64,000 nt of DNA from an uncultured Actinomycetota bacterium. Its GTDB lineage: Bacteria > Actinomycetota > Actinomycetes > Propionibacteriales > Nocardioidaceae. The stretch lies in the NCBI GenBank assembly GCA_963713255.1, contig CAVQLC010000002.1:99746-163745 (forward strand). Direction: 5' to 3'. The notes beneath the pieces were generated by a model. That model ran no database searches. It was not told the DNA's origin and was given only the letters and a program-made list of their open reading frames with translations. The first letter of the stretch is position 1, and every line of letters starts with the position of its first letter. The translations under genes were made by a program, and so were the position numbers. Below, piece after piece: positions 2,734-10,191 of the stretch.

Positions 2734-3717
2734 GTGAGCGAAGCTGATCCATCCTGACGTCGAGCGAGCCGCCCTGGCCCTCGGACTGGACGCCGCCACC
2801 GCCGAGGTCGTCTCCCCCTCGAGTCCCGGGGCGTGTCGACGGTCCTGCTCAAGGGGCCGGCGGTCGCGCTGTACCTCTACCCCGAGAACCCGTCCCTGCG
2901 CACCTACCGCGACATCGACCTGCTGGTGGACCCGCAGGTCTTCGACGCGGCCGAGGCACTGCTGGCCGGGCTCGGGTACTCGCTGCTCGACCGAGGACCT
3001 GAGCCACCGTGAGAAGTCCTGGCTGATGGAGACACCGTGGGAGCGACCGGGGTCACCGCCGACCATGGTCGACCTGCACCGGGCGTTCCACGGCGTGGAC
3101 GACTGGGAGGCGTGGTGGACCCAGATGGACCGCCACACCCAGACCTGCCGGGTGGGTGGGTCGTCGGTGCGGATCCCGGACGCCGCGGGCTGCGCGTTGA
3201 TCGTGGCGCCTGCACGAGACGGCGGTGGGCCGCAACGCGCAGTCCGCGGAGGACCTGGACCGAGCGCTGGCGACGTTCGACGAGGCCGTGTGGGCCGAGG
3301 CGGCGCGACGTGCCGACGACGTGGGACGCGCTCGGGATGGTTCACGCTCGGCCTGTCGCGGCACCCGCTGGGCCGGCTGCTGGCCGAGCGGCTCGACCTG
3401 CCGCGCCGGCTCCCGCTCGAGGTCGCCGCCCGCTCCAGTGACGGTGAGGGCACCGATCCCGCCGAGGTCCGCGCCTGGATCCTCCTGCACCGCCTGGGGC
3501 GGACCCGCTCCTGGCGCGAGCGCGGGCTCACGTTGTGGAGCCTCGCGTTCTCCGCCGGGTCGCTGCGCACGTCGAGACCCCTGGCCAGGCAAGGCTGGTG
3601 GGGGCTGACCTGGTGCGGCTGCAGCGGCCGTTCGAGCTGGCGGCCCGCGCTCCCGGCGTGGCGTACCGGCTGTGGGTCGGGAACCGCAGGGCGCGCTGGT
3701 CCCAGCGGCGCTCCTGA
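2734..3717 (+). pseudogene. NTP_transf_5-type nucleotidyltransferase family protein; at least 4 frameshifts as assembled
   Basis: Own three-frame reading gives ESRGVSTVLLKGPAVALYLYPENPSLRTYRDIDLLVDPQVFDAAEALLAGLGYSLL, then MVDLHRAFHGVDDWEAWW, then a tail LVRLQRPFELAARAPGVAYRLWV (track 3535..3717). It parallels the intact paralog at 30248..31159 (LLHLKGPALLAGL...SSDVDVLVQPDQF). Confidence 0.55.
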
Positions 3718-3720
3718 CCC

Positions 3721-4734
3721 TCAGTCCGGCTCGACCCGTTTCATGCCGACCAGACCGGGCCGGTACGACGGGTCCTCGAGCTCCGCGACGGTCGGATGGC
3801 CGAACATCGGCAACCCCTGGGTGCGCCGGATCAGGCCCCAGACCAGCGGGACCAGCACGACCATCACCAGGCCGACGACGCCGATCAGCACCGGGTGCGT
3901 GTCGTCCTCGCCGGCGCCGAGCGGTCCCCAGCCGGCCTTGTCCAGCAGCGCGACCCCGGACATGGTCAGCACCACGACGATGCCGCGCCGGATGATCGAC
4001 TGCGGCACCCGCGGGGCGATCAGGCTGCCGAGGATGGTGCCCGGGACCGAGCCGATGATGAGCGGGATCGTGACCGACCAGTCGAGGCCGTGGAGGGCGA
4101 TGTTGGAGATGGCCGCGGCCAGCACCAGCGGCACCGCCTGCACCAGGTCCGTGCCGACCAGCTTCACCGCGGTCAGGCCCGGGTAGAGCATCAGCAGGGC
4201 GATCATGATCACCGAGCCGGAGCCCACGCTGGTGATGCCCACGAGCAGGCCGCCCAGGGCCCCGACCAGCAGGGTCGGGATCGGCCGGATCTTGGGGTTC
4301 TCGTCGCCCGGAGGTGCGCCGGACCGGACCCGGCGCAGGTTGATGTAGAGCCGCGCGGCGTACGTCGCGGCGGCGAGGAGCAGCGCGAAGCCGATGCACA
4401 GCTTGAGCACCCGGTCGAGGTCTCCGGGAGGAGCGATCGCGTTGATCAGGTGCGGGCCCAGCAGTGCCATCGGCACCGAGCCGATGATCAGCCACTTGGC
4501 CAGCGTCATGTTGGGCGAGCCCTCGCGCTTGTGCACGACCGCGCCGCCGGTCTTGTAGACGGCGGCCGCCGTGAGGTCCGCGGTGACGACGGTCGCGGCG
4601 TCGCCGACGCCGAGGAAGATCAGGGCCGGCGTCATCAGCGCGCCGCCGCCCATGCCGGTCAGGCCGACGACGGTGCCGACGAAGAAGCCGGCCGCCAGGA
4701 TGGCGAAGAACGTCGTGGTGATCTGGTCAGCCAT
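3721..4734 (-). CDS. TauE/SafE-family anion (sulfite/sulfate-type) permease
   Basis: Intact 337-aa ORF, polytopic and Gly-rich. Repeated halves GLTGMGGGALMTPALIF and GITSVGSGSVIMIALLML are typical of TauE/SafE. Confidence 0.85.
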   Translation of the reverse strand: MADQITTTFFAILAAGFFVGTVVGLTGMGGGALMTPALIFLGVGDAATVVTADLTAAAVYKTGGAVVHKREGSPNMTLAKWLIIGSVPMALLGPHLINAIAPPGDLDRVLKLCIGFALLLAAATYAARLYINLRRVRSGAPPGDENPKIRPIPTLLVGALGGLLVGITSVGSGSVIMIALLMLYPGLTAVKLVGTDLVQAVPLVLAAAISNIALHGLDWSVTIPLIIGSVPGTILGSLIAPRVPQSIIRRGIVVVLTMSGVALLDKAGWGPLGAGEDDTHPVLIGVVGLVMVVLVPLVWGLIRRTQGLPMFGHPTVAELEDPSYRPGLVGMKRVEPD

Positions 4735-4777: not shown

Positions 4778-6565
4778 CTACTGACTCGCCTGAGTTGGTC
4801 GCAGCGCTGGGACGACGATACCGAGCAGGTCGTCGATCCGGGCCTTGCACGTCGCGGCGACCTCGGGACCGCGGCGGTACGGGTCGTCCACGTCGTGGCG
4901 GGGGTCCGCCTGGGACCGGTGCCGGCCGATCTCGGCGACCAGCGCGCGACCGCGGGGGGCGTCGGCGCCCAGCGTGGCCACCGCGTCCGCGAACTGACCG
5001 AGCGTGAACACCTTGCGGAACGCCCCCGGGGTCTCCTCGAGCAGGTAGGTGCGGTGCGCGGCCTCGGCGGTGAGCACCAGGTCGGCCGCCTCGACCAGGT
5101 CGACGGTGGCGCGCCGGCTGCGGAACCTGCGGGCGTCGGTCTCGAAGCCGCCGATCATCTCCTCGCTCATCGGACGGTCGGCGAACCCGTGGGTGCCCGC
5201 GCTGGACACCTCGATCCCGGAGGCCGGACCGAGCAGGCGCCGGGTCGCCAGCTCCATGTACGGCGAGCGGCAGATGTTCGCGGTGCAGACGAAGAGGACC
5301 TTGAGGGGCGGGTTGTCGGCGTGCCCGGGTCTCGAGGCTCGCTCCGCTCGCACCTCGACCACCGGGGTGGCCGCGTCCGTCAGGTCGAGGTAGCCGGCGT
5401 CGCGGAGTGCGACGAGGACGTCGTCGAGGGCGTCCTCGATGGACCGGCCGGTGGTGTCGACGCGCACGGCCGCGTCCTCCGGCACCTCGTAGGGCGAGGA
5501 GATGCCGGTGAACTCCGGGATCTCGCCGCGCCGGGCCTTCGCGTAGAGACCCTTGCGGTCGCGTCGCTCGCACTCCTCCAGCGGGGTGGCCACGTGCACG
5601 AGGAAGAACGCACCGCCGGCCTCCTCGACCATCGCCCGCACCTGTCGCCGGGTCTCGTCGAACGGCGCGATCGGGCTGCACACGGCGACGCCGCCGTGCC
5701 GGGCGATCTCGGCGGCGACCCAGCCGATCCGGCGGATGTTCGTCTCCCGGTCCTCCTTGGAGAACGTCAGCCCCGCCGAGAGGTGCCGGCGGACGACGTC
5801 ACCGTCCAGGCTGGTCACGCTCCGGCCGCCGCGCTCCAGCAGGCGGTCCATCAGCGCCCGCGCGAGCGTGGACTTGCCGCTGCCGGAGAGCCCGGTGAAG
5901 AACAGCACCAGGCCCTGCTCCTCGGGAGCCGGCCGGTCCGCCGTCACGATCGCGGCCAGCTCGTCGGGCAGCTCGCCCCCGTCCACCAGCCCGTGCACGG
6001 GGTCGCCGTCGGCGTAGACGCCGACCACCTGGGCCCCGAGGGCGTGGTCCACGTCCGCGTCGCCGTGGCTCGCGAGCGGGACCACGACGACGTCGGCGGC
6101 CGGGAGCGTGGCCGCGGCGACCAGGGTCGCCCGCACCAGGGCGGTGGGGGAGAGCTCAGGGGTGCCGGTGCCGGCGAGCGCCAGCAGCACCAGCGGCCCA
6201 CGGCCGCGCAGGTCGTCGAGCTGGGTGTCGGTGAGCGCGTCGACGACGGGCACGAAGGTGCGCCCGGCGTACCGCGCGCGGACCTCGGCAGGCGGGAGGT
6301 AGAGGCGGCGGAACGGGCCGTACTGCGCGTGGGTGAGAGGCTCGACGGCCGAGCCCGCGGTGACCCGCGCGAGCGGCAGGCCCTCGGGGTCGACCAGCTC
6401 GACGGACTCGGCCCCGTGCAGCTCCTCGGGCAGGTCGAGCGTGAGCGGGCTGCCGGGCTCGTTGAAGCCGGTGACCGGTGCGGCCGCCCCGGTGACGATC
6501 AGCTCGAGGTCGTCGAGCTCGGTCGGGCTCGGGTGGTGCTGGGGAGGCGTCGGCACGCGGATCAT
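4778..6565 (-). CDS. cysC: fusion protein: sulfurylase-like N-terminal region + adenylylsulfate (APS) kinase + C-terminal low-molecular-weight phosphotyrosine phosphatase
   Basis: Intact ORF 4778..6625; start placed at the internal ATG 6565 (MIRVPTPP), with 6625 as an alternative. APS kinase: FFTGLSGSGKSTLARAL, PEFTGISSPYEVP. LMW-PTP: VLFVCTANICRSPYME (CX5R) and DDPY. Confidence 0.8.
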   Translation of the reverse strand: MIRVPTPPQHHPSPTELDDLELIVTGAAAPVTGFNEPGSPLTLDLPEELHGAESVELVDPEGLPLARVTAGSAVEPLTHAQYGPFRRLYLPPAEVRARYAGRTFVPVVDALTDTQLDDLRGRGPLVLLALAGTGTPELSPTALVRATLVAAATLPAADVVVVPLASHGDADVDHALGAQVVGVYADGDPVHGLVDGGELPDELAAIVTADRPAPEEQGLVLFFTGLSGSGKSTLARALMDRLLERGGRSVTSLDGDVVRRHLSAGLTFSKEDRETNIRRIGWVAAEIARHGGVAVCSPIAPFDETRRQVRAMVEEAGGAFFLVHVATPLEECERRDRKGLYAKARRGEIPEFTGISSPYEVPEDAAVRVDTTGRSIEDALDDVLVALRDAGYLDLTDAATPVVEVRAERASRPGHADNPPLKVLFVCTANICRSPYMELATRRLLGPASGIEVSSAGTHGFADRPMSEEMIGGFETDARRFRSRRATVDLVEAADLVLTAEAAHRTYLLEETPGAFRKVFTLGQFADAVATLGADAPRGRALVAEIGRHRSQADPRHDVDDPYRRGPEVAATCKARIDDLLGIVVPALRPTQASQ

Positions 6566-6623
6566 CCTGCCACCCGGCCGGGTCCCGCCGAGCCGCCCAC
6601 CGGGGCCGACTAGCCTGCCCGGC

Positions 6624-7601
6624 ATGTCTGCTCCAGTGCCGGTGGCCGAGATCGTCCGCTCGGGTTTCGTCGAGGGCCACCACTACGGCTCGGTCGTCGC
6701 CCTGGACCTCGACGGAGCGGTCGCCTGGTCGGTGGGCGTCGTCGACGAGCCGATGCTGCCCCGCTCCTGCAACAAGCCGGTCCAGGCGCTCGGCATGGTC
6801 CGCGCCGGGCTCGACCTGCCGCCCGACCTGCTCGCCCTGGCCTGCGCCTCGCACAGCGGGGAGCCCATCCACATCGAGGGGACGCGGCGCATCCTGGCCC
6901 TGGCGGGCCTCGACGAGGACGCCTTGCAGACCCCGGCGGACTACCCCTTGGACGAGCACGCCCGGGAGCTGGTCATCCGCGCCGGCGGCGGACGCGCGCC
7001 GATCCTGATGAACTGCTCGGGCAAGCACGCCGCGATGCTCGTCACCTGCGTGGTGAACGGGTGGGACACCACGACCTACCTCGACCCCGGGCACCCGTTG
7101 CAGCGGGCGCTGCGCGACACGTTCGGGGAGCTCACCGGCGAGCCGGTGGCCGTGGTCGCCGTGGACGGCTGCGGTGCGCCGCTCTTCTCCGCCTCGTTGG
7201 TCGGCCTGGCCACCGCGTTCCGCCGGATCGCCCTGGGCGTGGACGGCCGGGACGAACCCGACCCCGACGCCCGGCGCGTGGCCGAGGCCATCCGGGCCCA
7301 CCCGGAGTACGCCTCCGGCACGGCCCGCGACGAGGCCGCGCTGCTGCGGGCCATCCCCGGCGCGGTCGGGAAGGCCGGGGCGGAGTCCTGCTACGCCGTG
7401 GCGCTGGCGGACGGCCGCGCGTTCGCGCTCAAGACCGACGACGGCGCCCCCCGGGTGCGGCCGGTGCTGATGGCGGCCGCGCTGGCGCGCAGCGGCGTCG
7501 ACCTCGAGCCGGGGGTGGACACCGAGGCGGTCCACCGCACCGGCGTGCTCGACCTGCTCGGGGGCGGGGTGCGCGTGGGGGAGATCCGCGCCACGTTGTG
7601 A
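6624..7601 (+). CDS. L-asparaginase II-family protein
   Basis: Internal ATG (M98) of track ORF 6333..7601. Reads MSAPVPVAEIVRSGFVEGHHYGSVVALD...PRSCNKPVQALGMV...ACASHSGEPIH...MNCSGKHAAML...VDGCGAP. Confidence 0.8.
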   Translation: MSAPVPVAEIVRSGFVEGHHYGSVVALDLDGAVAWSVGVVDEPMLPRSCNKPVQALGMVRAGLDLPPDLLALACASHSGEPIHIEGTRRILALAGLDEDALQTPADYPLDEHARELVIRAGGGRAPILMNCSGKHAAMLVTCVVNGWDTTTYLDPGHPLQRALRDTFGELTGEPVAVVAVDGCGAPLFSASLVGLATAFRRIALGVDGRDEPDPDARRVAEAIRAHPEYASGTARDEAALLRAIPGAVGKAGAESCYAVALADGRAFALKTDDGAPRVRPVLMAAALARSGVDLEPGVDTEAVHRTGVLDLLGGGVRVGEIRATL

Positions 7602-9352
7602 TGGTGCAGGCTGCCCCCATGCACTACGTCGGGATCGACCTCGCGTGGGGGGAGAAGCAGCCCACCGGGGTGGCGGTGCTCGACGCGGACGCCCGGCTCG
7701 TCCACCTGGGCACGGTGCGCACCGACGACGAGATCGCGGCCGCGCTGGCGCCGTACGTCGAGGGCCGCTGCCTGGTCGGCATCGACGCCCCGCTGGTCGT
7801 GCGGAACGCGACCGGCTCCCGGCCGGCCGAGCAGGCGCTGAGCAAGGACTTCCGGGCGTTCGAGGCCGGCACCCACCCGTCCAACACGACCAAGGCGGAG
7901 TTCGCCGACGGTCACACCCGCGGCGCCCGGGTCGCCAAGCGGCTGGGCCTCGACATGGACCCCCGGTCGGGTCGCGAGCGCCGGGCGATCGAGGTCTACC
8001 CGCACCCGGCGATCGTGGTGCTCTTCCGCCTGGGCCGCACCCTGAAGTACAAGAACAAGCCCGGCCGCGACTTCGCCGAGCTGCGCAGCGAGCTGCTGGC
8101 GCTGATGGGCCACCTCGAGGGGGTCATCTCCCCCGACCAGGCGTGGCGGCGGCTGCGCGCCCAGGTCGAGACCGCGACCCGGAAGAGCGAGCTGCGGGTG
8201 GCCGAGGACCAGGTCGATGCCGTGGTCGCGGCGTACGTCGCCCTGTACGCCGACCGGCACCCCGAGCTCACCACCACCTACGGCGACTTCGAGACCGGCT
8301 ACATCGTGACGCCCACGCTGCCCGACGGGCATACCGCGACCCCCCGGGCCCCGCGGGCGACGCGGCCGCCCGCCGACCCGGTGACGGCGTACGCCGCCCA
8401 GCACCCGGAGCTCACCCGGGCCGCGGAGCAGTGGACCGCGCTGGTCACCTCGATCCTGGACGACGCGGGCATCAACTACCTCACCGTCACGGGGCGCGCG
8501 AAGACGATCTCGTCCTTCGCCGCCAAGGCGGCGCGCGTCGAGAACGGCGAGCCGAGCTTCACCGACCCCCTGACGGAGATCACCGACCAGATCGGCGTGC
8601 GCGTCATCACCTACGTGCACAGCGACGTGGCGGCGGTCGTCGACCTGCTCGGCGACCAGGTCGTCATCCACGACGACCGGGACATGGGCCGGGAGACCGC
8701 CAGCGAGGGCCGCTTCGGCTACGCCAGCCGGCACCTGCTGGTCGGTCTGGACGCGCCCCGCGAGCACCTGCCGGCGTACGAAGCGCTGCGGGGGCGTCGG
8801 GCGCAGGTGCAGATCCGCACCGTCCTGCAGCACGCGTGGGCGGAGTTCGAGCACGACATCCGGTACAAGGGCACCATCCCCGACGAGCACGTGCCGGACT
8901 TCGACCGGCGCTTCACCCTGGCCGCCGGGCTGCTCGAGCTCGCGGACCGCGAGTTCTCGACGATCCGGGACCGGCTCCAGGCGGGCATGACCGACCAACC
9001 GACGGCGCCCGGCGACGACGACCCGCGGATCAGCCCGCGTGAGCTGGCGGCCTTCCTGGCCGGGCAGTACTCCGACGCCGGCTGGTCGCGCACCGACCAC
9101 TACGCCTGGATCTCCGGGCTGCTGCTGGAGCTCGGCATCACGTCGCTGGACGAGCTGGGCGACGTGCTGCGGGCCCTGGACGGCGCCGACCTCACCGCCC
9201 GGATGGGCTACCGGTACCCGCCGGGCGCGGTGCGCCGCCTCGACGACGCCCTGCTCGCGGCGTACGGCGAGCGGTACGTCGGGCTGCGGGGCAACGCCCA
9301 CCGGGAACCCGCGCTGCGGGCCCGGCTGGAGAAGCTGGTCGACGGAGCCTGA
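7601..9352 (+). CDS. DUF429 (predicted RNase H-fold nuclease)-RelA/SpoT nucleotide pyrophosphokinase fusion protein
   Basis: M181 of track ORF 7061..9352; the ATG overlaps the asparaginase stop by 1 nt. N-terminal part: HYVGIDLAWGEKQPTGVAVLD...GIDAPLVVRN...EVYPHPA. C-terminal part: ITDQIGVRVITY...GRFGYASRHLLV...VQIRTVLQHAWAEFEHDIRYK, followed by an extra tail of about 130 aa. Confidence 0.75.
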   Translation: MVQAAPMHYVGIDLAWGEKQPTGVAVLDADARLVHLGTVRTDDEIAAALAPYVEGRCLVGIDAPLVVRNATGSRPAEQALSKDFRAFEAGTHPSNTTKAEFADGHTRGARVAKRLGLDMDPRSGRERRAIEVYPHPAIVVLFRLGRTLKYKNKPGRDFAELRSELLALMGHLEGVISPDQAWRRLRAQVETATRKSELRVAEDQVDAVVAAYVALYADRHPELTTTYGDFETGYIVTPTLPDGHTATPRAPRATRPPADPVTAYAAQHPELTRAAEQWTALVTSILDDAGINYLTVTGRAKTISSFAAKAARVENGEPSFTDPLTEITDQIGVRVITYVHSDVAAVVDLLGDQVVIHDDRDMGRETASEGRFGYASRHLLVGLDAPREHLPAYEALRGRRAQVQIRTVLQHAWAEFEHDIRYKGTIPDEHVPDFDRRFTLAAGLLELADREFSTIRDRLQAGMTDQPTAPGDDDPRISPRELAAFLAGQYSDAGWSRTDHYAWISGLLLELGITSLDELGDVLRALDGADLTARMGYRYPPGAVRRLDDALLAAYGERYVGLRGNAHREPALRARLEKLVDGA

Positions 9353-9356
9353 CCGG

Positions 9357-10191
9357 TCAGTGCGGCCAGACGGCGCGGACCTGCGCGGCCACCTCGCGGG
9401 ACTGGCGCAGGCCGGTGCGGGCCGCGTCGGCGCGCTTCTCGGGGTTGAGCACGTTGCGCCCGATGTCGAGGGCCGCCTGCTTGTCGGGCTTGACCACCAC
9501 CGAGCGGACCGGGCCGATCCGGCGCAGCTGCGCGGCGATCGAGGTGGCCCGGCTGAAGGCCTGCGGCAGCGGCGCCAGCACCACCACGACGTCGGCGCCG
9601 CGGGCCACGTCGACGTTGGCCGTCGACCGCATGCCACCGTCCATGAAGTGCCGACCGTGGATCGTCACCGCGGGCCAGACCAGCGGGACCGCGCAGCTCG
9701 CGGCGACGGCGTCGACGAGGTCGACGCCGCTGTTCTTGTCGAAGGTGACGAACTCGCCGGAGTCGGTGTCGACCGAGGTGATGAGCAGCTCCCGGTCGGG
9801 CCAGTCGGTGACGTCGATCCGGGACCGGATCACCTCGATCCGCTCCGTCGCCCCCGGGCGTGTGCGCCTTGGTCGACAGGCGGCCGATCCGGCGGCGCTT
9901 GCGGGTGGGCGCGCCGGGCACCAGCAGCGGCGGCAGCAGGCGGGCCAGGTCGTTGCGGCCCATGGTGGAGCCGATCTCGTGGTCGGGGGGCTCGAGCTGG
10001 AGGTCGTAGAGGTCGGCGAGATCGAGGCCCGAGGTGATCTGGGCGCCGACGACGGAGCCGGCCGAGGTCCCGACGACCCGGTCGGCGTCGGTGAGCTTCA
10101 GGCCCTGCTCCGCCAGCCCCTGGAGGATGCCGAGCTCCCAGGCGATGCCGGTGATCCCGCCGCCGCCGAGCACGAGTGCCGTACGTGTCAT
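9357..10191 (-). pseudogene. patatin-like phospholipase; one frameshift near 9835-9850 as assembled
   Basis: Track ORFs 9208..10191 (MTRTALVLGGGGITGIAWELG...GTSAGSVVG) and 9357..9833 (...HFMDGGMRSTANVD) join into one patatin fold, with GGGxxG, GxSxG and DGG motifs. Confidence 0.75.

Follow-up and report, generated by a model that had tools for sequence, protein, structure and literature searches.

RelZ of Mycobacterium smegmatis (MSMEG_5849, also known as MS_RHII-RSD; Murdeshwar & Chatterji 2012) is an actinobacterial protein of 567 residues, encoded on the chromosome, in which a DUF429 domain, a RelA/SpoT-type synthetase domain and a C-terminal tail follow one another and which contains no HD hydrolase domain. 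It belongs to the actRel subgroup of small alarmone synthetases (SAS), which was defined in a study that also noted an N-terminal DUF429 in its M. smegmatis, M. gilvum and M. vanbaalenii members (Atkinson 2011). The domain referred to as RNase HII in RelZ is the Pfam family DUF429 (Atkinson 2011; Minias 2015), and DUF429 has been assigned, within the RNase H-like superfamily, to the RuvC/YqgF/terminase clade in a study that also listed the DUF429-RelA/SpoT combination in Actinobacteria (Majorek 2014). The same fusion has been noted in Mycobacterium and in Marmoricola, a genus of the Nocardioidaceae (Ruwe 2017). Hydrolysis of RNA:DNA hybrids as well as of R-loops, synthesis of (pp)pGpp and a hexameric state have been reported only for the M. 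smegmatis protein (PMC7591505 among the sources). Here we analyze an open reading frame with this domain order on a 64,000-nucleotide stretch of contig CAVQLC010000002.1 from an uncultured member of the Nocardioidaceae. The whole stretch is referred to as the window.

Relationship to RelZ

The reading frame on the plus strand is open from position 7061 to the stop codon at 9350–9352. Translation from the ATG at 7601 gives 583 residues including the motifs GIDLAWG, GIDAPLVV, YPHPA, GYASRHLLV and QIRTVLQHAWAEFEHDIRYK, and the window is GC-rich (about 70–76% GC). The protein is very probably the Nocardioidaceae orthologue of actinobacterial RelZ. Its architecture is already known: it was described in 2011–2012, is catalogued under the names actRel and RelZ, and already has a product name in the NCBI records of close relatives. 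As a discovery the locus therefore carries little weight; within the known RelZ/actRel dual-domain family it is nothing out of the ordinary. The features of the gene, in window positions, are:

7601–9352, plus strand: open reading frame of the predicted dual-domain small alarmone synthetase of the RelZ/MS_RHII-RSD type; 583 residues from ATG 7601, 577 residues from ATG 7619 (conserved N-terminus MHYVG)
7619–8320, plus strand: DUF429 domain (PF04250, COG4328), RNase H-like fold nuclease, the "RHII" of RelZ; residues ~7–240
8321–8377, plus strand: linker rich in Pro, Ala and Thr, the sole low-confidence segment of the model; residues ~241–259
8378–8992, plus strand: small-alarmone-synthetase domain (PF04607) with an N-terminal helix, the RelA_SpoT core and a long C-terminal helix; residues ~260–464
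8993–9349, plus strand: actRel-type C-terminal helical domain with six modelled helices; residues ~465–583

A Pfam-A search of the 583-residue protein located DUF429 (PF04250) at residues 11–228 (E=8.7e-29; 101 bits, cut-off 23), placed RelA_SpoT (PF04607) at residues 298–424 (E=1.1e-14; 55 bits, cut-off 27) and returned no match to an HD hydrolase domain. Among the NCBIfam models only one of YjbM/RelQ type matched, below its threshold. An earlier reading of this DNA, made from the letters alone and called here the sequence-only reading, had described a single intact frame with a DUF429 domain, a RelA/SpoT synthetase domain, no HD domain and an extra tail. Frame, translation and Pfam search agree with that description, with a tail of ~120 residues.

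The closest link to a described RelZ is a 577-residue protein of M. gilvum PYR-GCK (P0378); a review of RelZ lists the protein of this species as a dual-domain orthologue (PMC7591505). P0378 aligns with 54% identity from residues 7–579 of the window protein to its own residues 1–574, and the two remain collinear across nuclease domain, linker, synthetase domain and tail. Proteins of Nocardioides koreensis and Angustibacter speluncae with 73–74% identity carry the NCBI name "bifunctional ribonuclease/(p)ppGpp synthase", and mycobacterial proteins share this name. The sequence-only reading had already pointed to mycobacterial RelZ, a link that the end-to-end identity with the M. gilvum orthologue bears out. 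It had, however, supposed a parallel architecture built on a different RNase H-like fold, which is wrong: because the RHII domain of RelZ is itself DUF429, the window protein has the same architecture and is of the same family, not a convergent parallel. In length the window protein and M. smegmatis RelZ are similar (583 and 567 residues). The differences are the host family (Nocardioidaceae instead of Mycobacteriaceae), the residue at the Glu position of the Syn4 motif (Gln, where the mycobacterial fused proteins have Ser) and the neighboring genes (asparaginase and patatin, as against purB in mycobacteria).

When 5.8 billion proteins were searched by word index, more than 3,600 matched the 583-residue protein. 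The best 120 listed all contain both Pfam domains; nearly all are 565–625 residues long (one has 721), and most come from Nocardioides and other Nocardioidaceae. The fusion of DUF429 to the synthetase domain is real and ordinary for a known type of actinobacterial enzyme, and it occurs widely among Nocardioidaceae, not being limited to environmental mycobacteria. For residue conservation we used 80 aligned sequences, 40 Nocardioides-like and 40 mycobacterial fused homologues. The 50%-cluster representatives P0127, P0154 and P0250, which are frameshifted metagenome calls, were left out of the family alignment, as were P0208 and P0174, in which DUF429 is combined with other domains; P0153 is partly out of frame. 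P0208 (628 residues) and P0174 (556 residues) are metagenome proteins whose DUF429 is followed at the C-terminal side by modules of another kind than RelA/SpoT; an HNH-like Cys/His motif occurs in one of these.

Structural models of the domains

A full-length AlphaFold2 model calculated on an 80-sequence alignment has a mean predicted local distance difference test (pLDDT) score of 86.8. In Foldseek the whole-protein model returned matches to the synthetase domain only, and the N-terminal domain was therefore modelled alone (residues 1–249; pLDDT 94.5, predicted template modelling score 0.93). Its core follows the order β-β-β-α-β-α-β-α, with strands at residues 8–13, 22–27, 32–39, 57–62 and 127–131 and helices at residues 42–53, 134–141 and 195–219. 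Six acidic residues, D13, D62, E131, E202, D203 and D206, are invariant in all 80 aligned sequences. Strand 1, strand 4 and the C-terminal helix bear conserved acids, the arrangement that marks the RNase H-like superfamily, and D13, D62, E131 and E202/D203/D206 are candidates for the catalytic acids of the domain. The RNase H fold and the acidic residues anticipated by the sequence-only reading are thus seen in the model and in the alignment.

The search with the N-terminal model found nothing close among solved structures (best E about 1e-3). Its weak neighbors all belong to the RNase H-like fold class and include TEFM, phage large-terminase nucleases, the RuvC domain of Cas12a, the YqgF domain of Spt6, Argonaute and ASKHA proteins, in agreement with the placement of DUF429 by Majorek (2014). 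No structure of RNase HII is among the 50 Foldseek neighbors listed, and the 583-residue protein has no Pfam match to RNase HII. Canonical RNase HII (RnhB) has in common with RelZ the activity on RNA:DNA hybrids reported in the RelZ literature and a distant fold relationship within the RNase H-like superfamily. "RHII" in RelZ names an activity, not a family; what has been called its RNase HII is a DUF429 domain of the RuvC/YqgF clade. The N-terminal domain also has homologues that lack a synthetase domain, namely the 285-residue mycobacterial proteins encoded beside purB, proteins of the PDC-S44 type and a 249-residue protein of M. phlei with 57% identity to the N-domain of the window protein.

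The linker to the synthetase domain varies in length across the homologues, and its residues 249–257 have pLDDT values below 50 in the full-length model. In the synthetase domain, motifs Syn1 (R299, K301, S305, K309), Syn2 (D329, G332, R334), Syn3 (Y374, S376, H378) and Syn5 (H418, Y422, K423) are invariant throughout the 80 sequences. A sequence search of the Protein Data Bank (PDB) with this domain matched RelQ and RelP only, at E=2.5e-9 for the single sequence and E=2.7e-15 for the family profile. The profile matches to RelQ/RelP span E=1e-15 to 1e-10, and CapRel follows at E=0.9. In Foldseek, template modelling scores normalized to the target were 0.72–0.78 for RelQ/RelP and far lower for CapRel, Rel and SpoT. 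The synthetase domain is hence nearest to the housekeeping enzymes RelQ/RelP, not to CapRel. These SAS1/SAS2 enzymes of Firmicutes (PDB entries 5DEC, 2BE3 and 6EWZ) are the nearest solved structures at 20–25% identity and have Syn1, Syn2, Syn3 and Syn5 in common with the window protein. They differ from it in being single-domain tetramers with neither nuclease domain nor tail, and in their canonical ExQIRT sequence at Syn4.

The tail forms six helices with pLDDT values of about 80–97. It is among the most conserved regions of the alignment, with the invariant motifs GWSR..HY.W and Y.YP.GAVRRLDD, and matches neither a Pfam family, at a limit of E≤10, nor a sequence in the PDB. Stand-alone actRel proteins of 330–360 residues align to residues ~255–579 in one stretch that includes the tail. 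Since these proteins carry it too, the tail is a feature of actRel and not an addition in the window protein, as the alignments indicate. RelS of Corynebacterium glutamicum (Cg2324), Rv1366 of M. tuberculosis and other stand-alone actRel proteins belong to the same synthetase subgroup but lack DUF429; RelS and Rv1366 are compared here by their description in the literature.

Proposed function and alternative readings

By analogy to M. smegmatis RelZ we propose the following function for the window protein. The nuclease domain would employ D13, D62, E131 and D203/D206 as putative ligands. The C-terminal synthetase domain would move pyrophosphate from ATP to the 3'-OH group of GMP, GDP or GTP, yielding pGpp, ppGpp or pppGpp, and would prefer its acceptors in the order GMP > GDP > GTP, as described for M. 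smegmatis RelZ. Both activities would require the intact, full-length oligomer, which is a hexamer in M. smegmatis, and synthesis would be inhibited by single-stranded RNA and by pppGpp. The proposed role is relief of R-loops and of conflicts between replication and transcription, together with tolerance to stress and antibiotics, rather than that of a toxin or a defence protein.

Several points weigh against this reading. The proposed function would be transferred from M. smegmatis biochemistry across roughly 50–55% identity. The orthology itself is judged from the M. gilvum protein and from the product name that NCBI gives to both groups: the mycobacterial sampling consisted of 80 loci (seed: the M. 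phlei DUF429 protein) and 120 proteins (seed: M. septicum), and M. smegmatis is in neither. The Glu position of Syn4 is occupied by Gln in 40 of 40 Nocardioides-like and by Ser in 40 of 40 mycobacterial fused proteins, and catalysis may differ owing to this change. Finally, the defence-system profiles of PADLOC gave two matches, PDC-S44 on residues 3–244 (E=3.8e-80) and PDC-S33 on residues 284–414 (E=5.9e-9, profile positions 57–175 of 349).

In canonical synthetases such as RelSeq and RelQ/RelP, the Syn4 glutamate is a catalytic Mg2+ ligand. The window protein reads QVQIRT at this motif instead of ExQIRT (positions 8804–8824, residues 402–408). The sequence-only reading had asked whether the synthetase domain keeps the conserved catalytic residues: those of Syn1, Syn2, Syn3 and Syn5 are present, and the Syn4 glutamate is replaced. 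The change does not bar membership in the family, because the mycobacterial fused proteins deviate at the same position, and loss of the glutamate fits the published Mg2+-independent synthesis by RelZ. One could nevertheless suppose that the loss renders the domain inactive or regulatory, or directs it to an acceptor other than GMP, GDP or GTP, in which case the label "(p)ppGpp synthase" would be inapplicable to the Nocardioides proteins. More distant stand-alone actRel proteins do retain the glutamate (FEIQVRT), Rv1366, an actRel protein without DUF429, has been reported unable to make (p)ppGpp, and the actRel subgroup's functional uniformity has been questioned (Ruwe 2017). Altered chemistry of this kind is nonetheless unlikely: the invariance of the other four motifs argues that the active site is retained, pGpp, ppGpp and pppGpp have been reported as products of M. 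smegmatis RelZ, both in vitro and when a rel mutant was used, and a Syn4 deviation is likewise found in C. glutamicum RelS, an active enzyme (Ruwe 2017).

Loss of the Syn4 glutamate throughout the clade, together with a conserved, uncharacterized C-terminal domain, is the ground for a broader supposition, according to which the synthesis of guanosine alarmones would not be the main task of the RelZ clade in vivo. The DUF429 nuclease would then be coupled to pyrophosphorylation of another acceptor, for example the 3'-OH of RNA that has been freed from hybrids. Alternatively, the protein would be a nucleic-acid-sensing defence module, at which the PADLOC candidates PDC-S44 and PDC-S33 hint. We consider this very unlikely. 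The sampled fused proteins of both groups lack the canonical glutamate and possess the conserved, unstudied C-terminal domain, so that these points concern the family as a whole and not this locus. Mutagenesis of Syn4 and of the C-terminal domain would be inexpensive in the M. smegmatis system already available.

A role as a toxic small alarmone synthetase (toxSAS) or as a fused anti-phage protein, raised in the sequence-only reading, would involve pyrophosphorylation of tRNA or synthesis of (pp)pApp on phage sensing, with DUF429 or the tail as sensor or co-effector, in the manner of CapRel or of PDC-S44 and PDC-S33. CapRel and other toxSAS proteins (FaRel, PhRel, Tas1) indeed have the RelA/SpoT synthetase fold without a hydrolase domain in common with the window protein, and CapRel also has an extension C-terminal to its synthetase domain. 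The sole hint beyond this general likeness comes from the PADLOC matches. PDC-S44 and PDC-S33, however, are unvalidated candidates; one of them is mentioned in a survey of environmental type, and no test of either was found in the literature searched. CapRel was the one toxSAS compared, and its similarity is marginal next to that of RelQ/RelP in both the profile and the Foldseek comparison. No conserved small, antitoxin-like neighbor of the gene was found, and its contexts, which differ among the genomes examined, are of housekeeping type. No full-length relative was found among 50,697 phage and 72,556 plasmid records, and the purB-adjacent locus is stable in 80 mycobacterial genomes. For M. 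smegmatis, the reported phenotypes of the relZ knockout concern stress and antibiotic tolerance, not phage defence. Taken together, these points make a toxin or defence role highly improbable. Location in a defence island and carriage by a plasmid or phage were likewise considered and rejected, in view of the housekeeping neighbors and the lack of full-length copies among these phage and plasmid records.

That adjacent DUF429 and stand-alone actRel genes were joined by a sequencing or assembly error is conceivable insofar as stand-alone proteins of both kinds occur (249–285 and 330–360 residues, respectively), but there is next to no chance of it and we rejected it, since both domains lie on one polypeptide in 120 of the 120 best matches, which are independent and stem from isolates and metagenomes, another 120 mycobacterial proteins matched, and the linker keeps the reading frame and a conserved position.

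Start codon and genomic context

The assignment to the RelZ family leaves the position of the start codon to be considered, because the upstream gene ends at the predicted ATG:

6636–7601, plus strand: Asparaginase_II gene (PF06089, E=1.7e-101); a neighbor only, not part of a conserved unit

The A of ATG 7601 is the last base of the TGA stop codon of this gene (7599–7601). The shared base pointed out in the sequence-only reading is therefore real if translation begins at 7601, but a start at this position is doubtful as judged from the homologues. In 71 of the 80 aligned sequences the start corresponds to Met7 of the window protein (MH[YF]VG, equivalent to ATG 7619), for which reason the overlap is probably an artefact of start-codon choice. 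In the 84%-identical relative, a metagenome-assembled genome of Nocardioides (locus L084), the RelZ-like gene is called from MHYVG, 57 nucleotides past the asparaginase stop codon.

The gene order of L084 is that of the window: TauE, APS kinase/LMWPc, asparaginase II, the RelZ-like gene, patatin, a helix-turn-helix regulator and DUF2516. Adjacency to the asparaginase gene is kept only in this closest relative, where the genes do not overlap, and is absent in the other loci examined (L001, L002, L085 and L086). The neighbors are ROK and DUF1801 genes in N. koreensis, α-amylase and DUF1801 genes in N. ungokensis, SMI1 and protein kinase genes in Angustibacter speluncae, and purB and an amino-acid permease gene in M. 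gilvum. The co-translation with asparaginase suggested earlier does not hold up against this comparison; an asparaginase operon was rejected as an explanation, and the coupling is at most a local accident. The RelZ-like gene lies on the chromosome among housekeeping genes. No Rfam family and no promoter-like or terminator-like site that would be informative for it was found, and at the gathering score no Rfam family matched either strand of the 64-kb window, which thus has no detectable tRNA, rRNA or riboswitch.

In mycobacteria the DUF429 gene adjoins purB in 80 of the 80 loci sampled (L004–L083, match at about 5001–6722), as is typical of a housekeeping gene passed on by vertical inheritance. 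Thirty of these loci encode the fused RelZ form of 570–576 residues and the other 50 a DUF429-only protein of 285 residues that ends in a short helix. No synthetase motif was present in the flanks of the 12 DUF429-only loci inspected. Because the fused and the DUF429-only forms are both adjacent to purB, the synthetase domain has been acquired or lost while the locus stayed the same.

Three further observations concern the neighboring genes. Downstream and convergent with the RelZ-like gene lies a gene for a patatin-like phospholipase (9357–10191, minus strand), which is split over two frames with the N- and C-terminal halves of the Patatin domain in separate open reading frames. The frame switches near 9849–9856 at a CCCGGGGG run, and L084 has an intact patatin of 277 residues at this place. 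The split is due either to a sequencing error in the homopolymer or to the gene having recently become a pseudogene.

Upstream, a minus-strand gene (4778–6625) next to the TauE sulfite exporter gene encodes a protein of 615 residues (611 in L084) that combines an APS kinase domain (residues 236–389) with a low-molecular-weight phosphatase/ArsC-like domain (residues 442–547), preceded by an N-terminal region of ~230 residues without a Pfam match. In L084 a MazE/PIN toxin-antitoxin pair (3304–3959 of that locus) is located between the APS-kinase and asparaginase genes. The window is without this pair (~6625–6636), and the predicted starts of the two divergent genes are only about 10 nucleotides apart.

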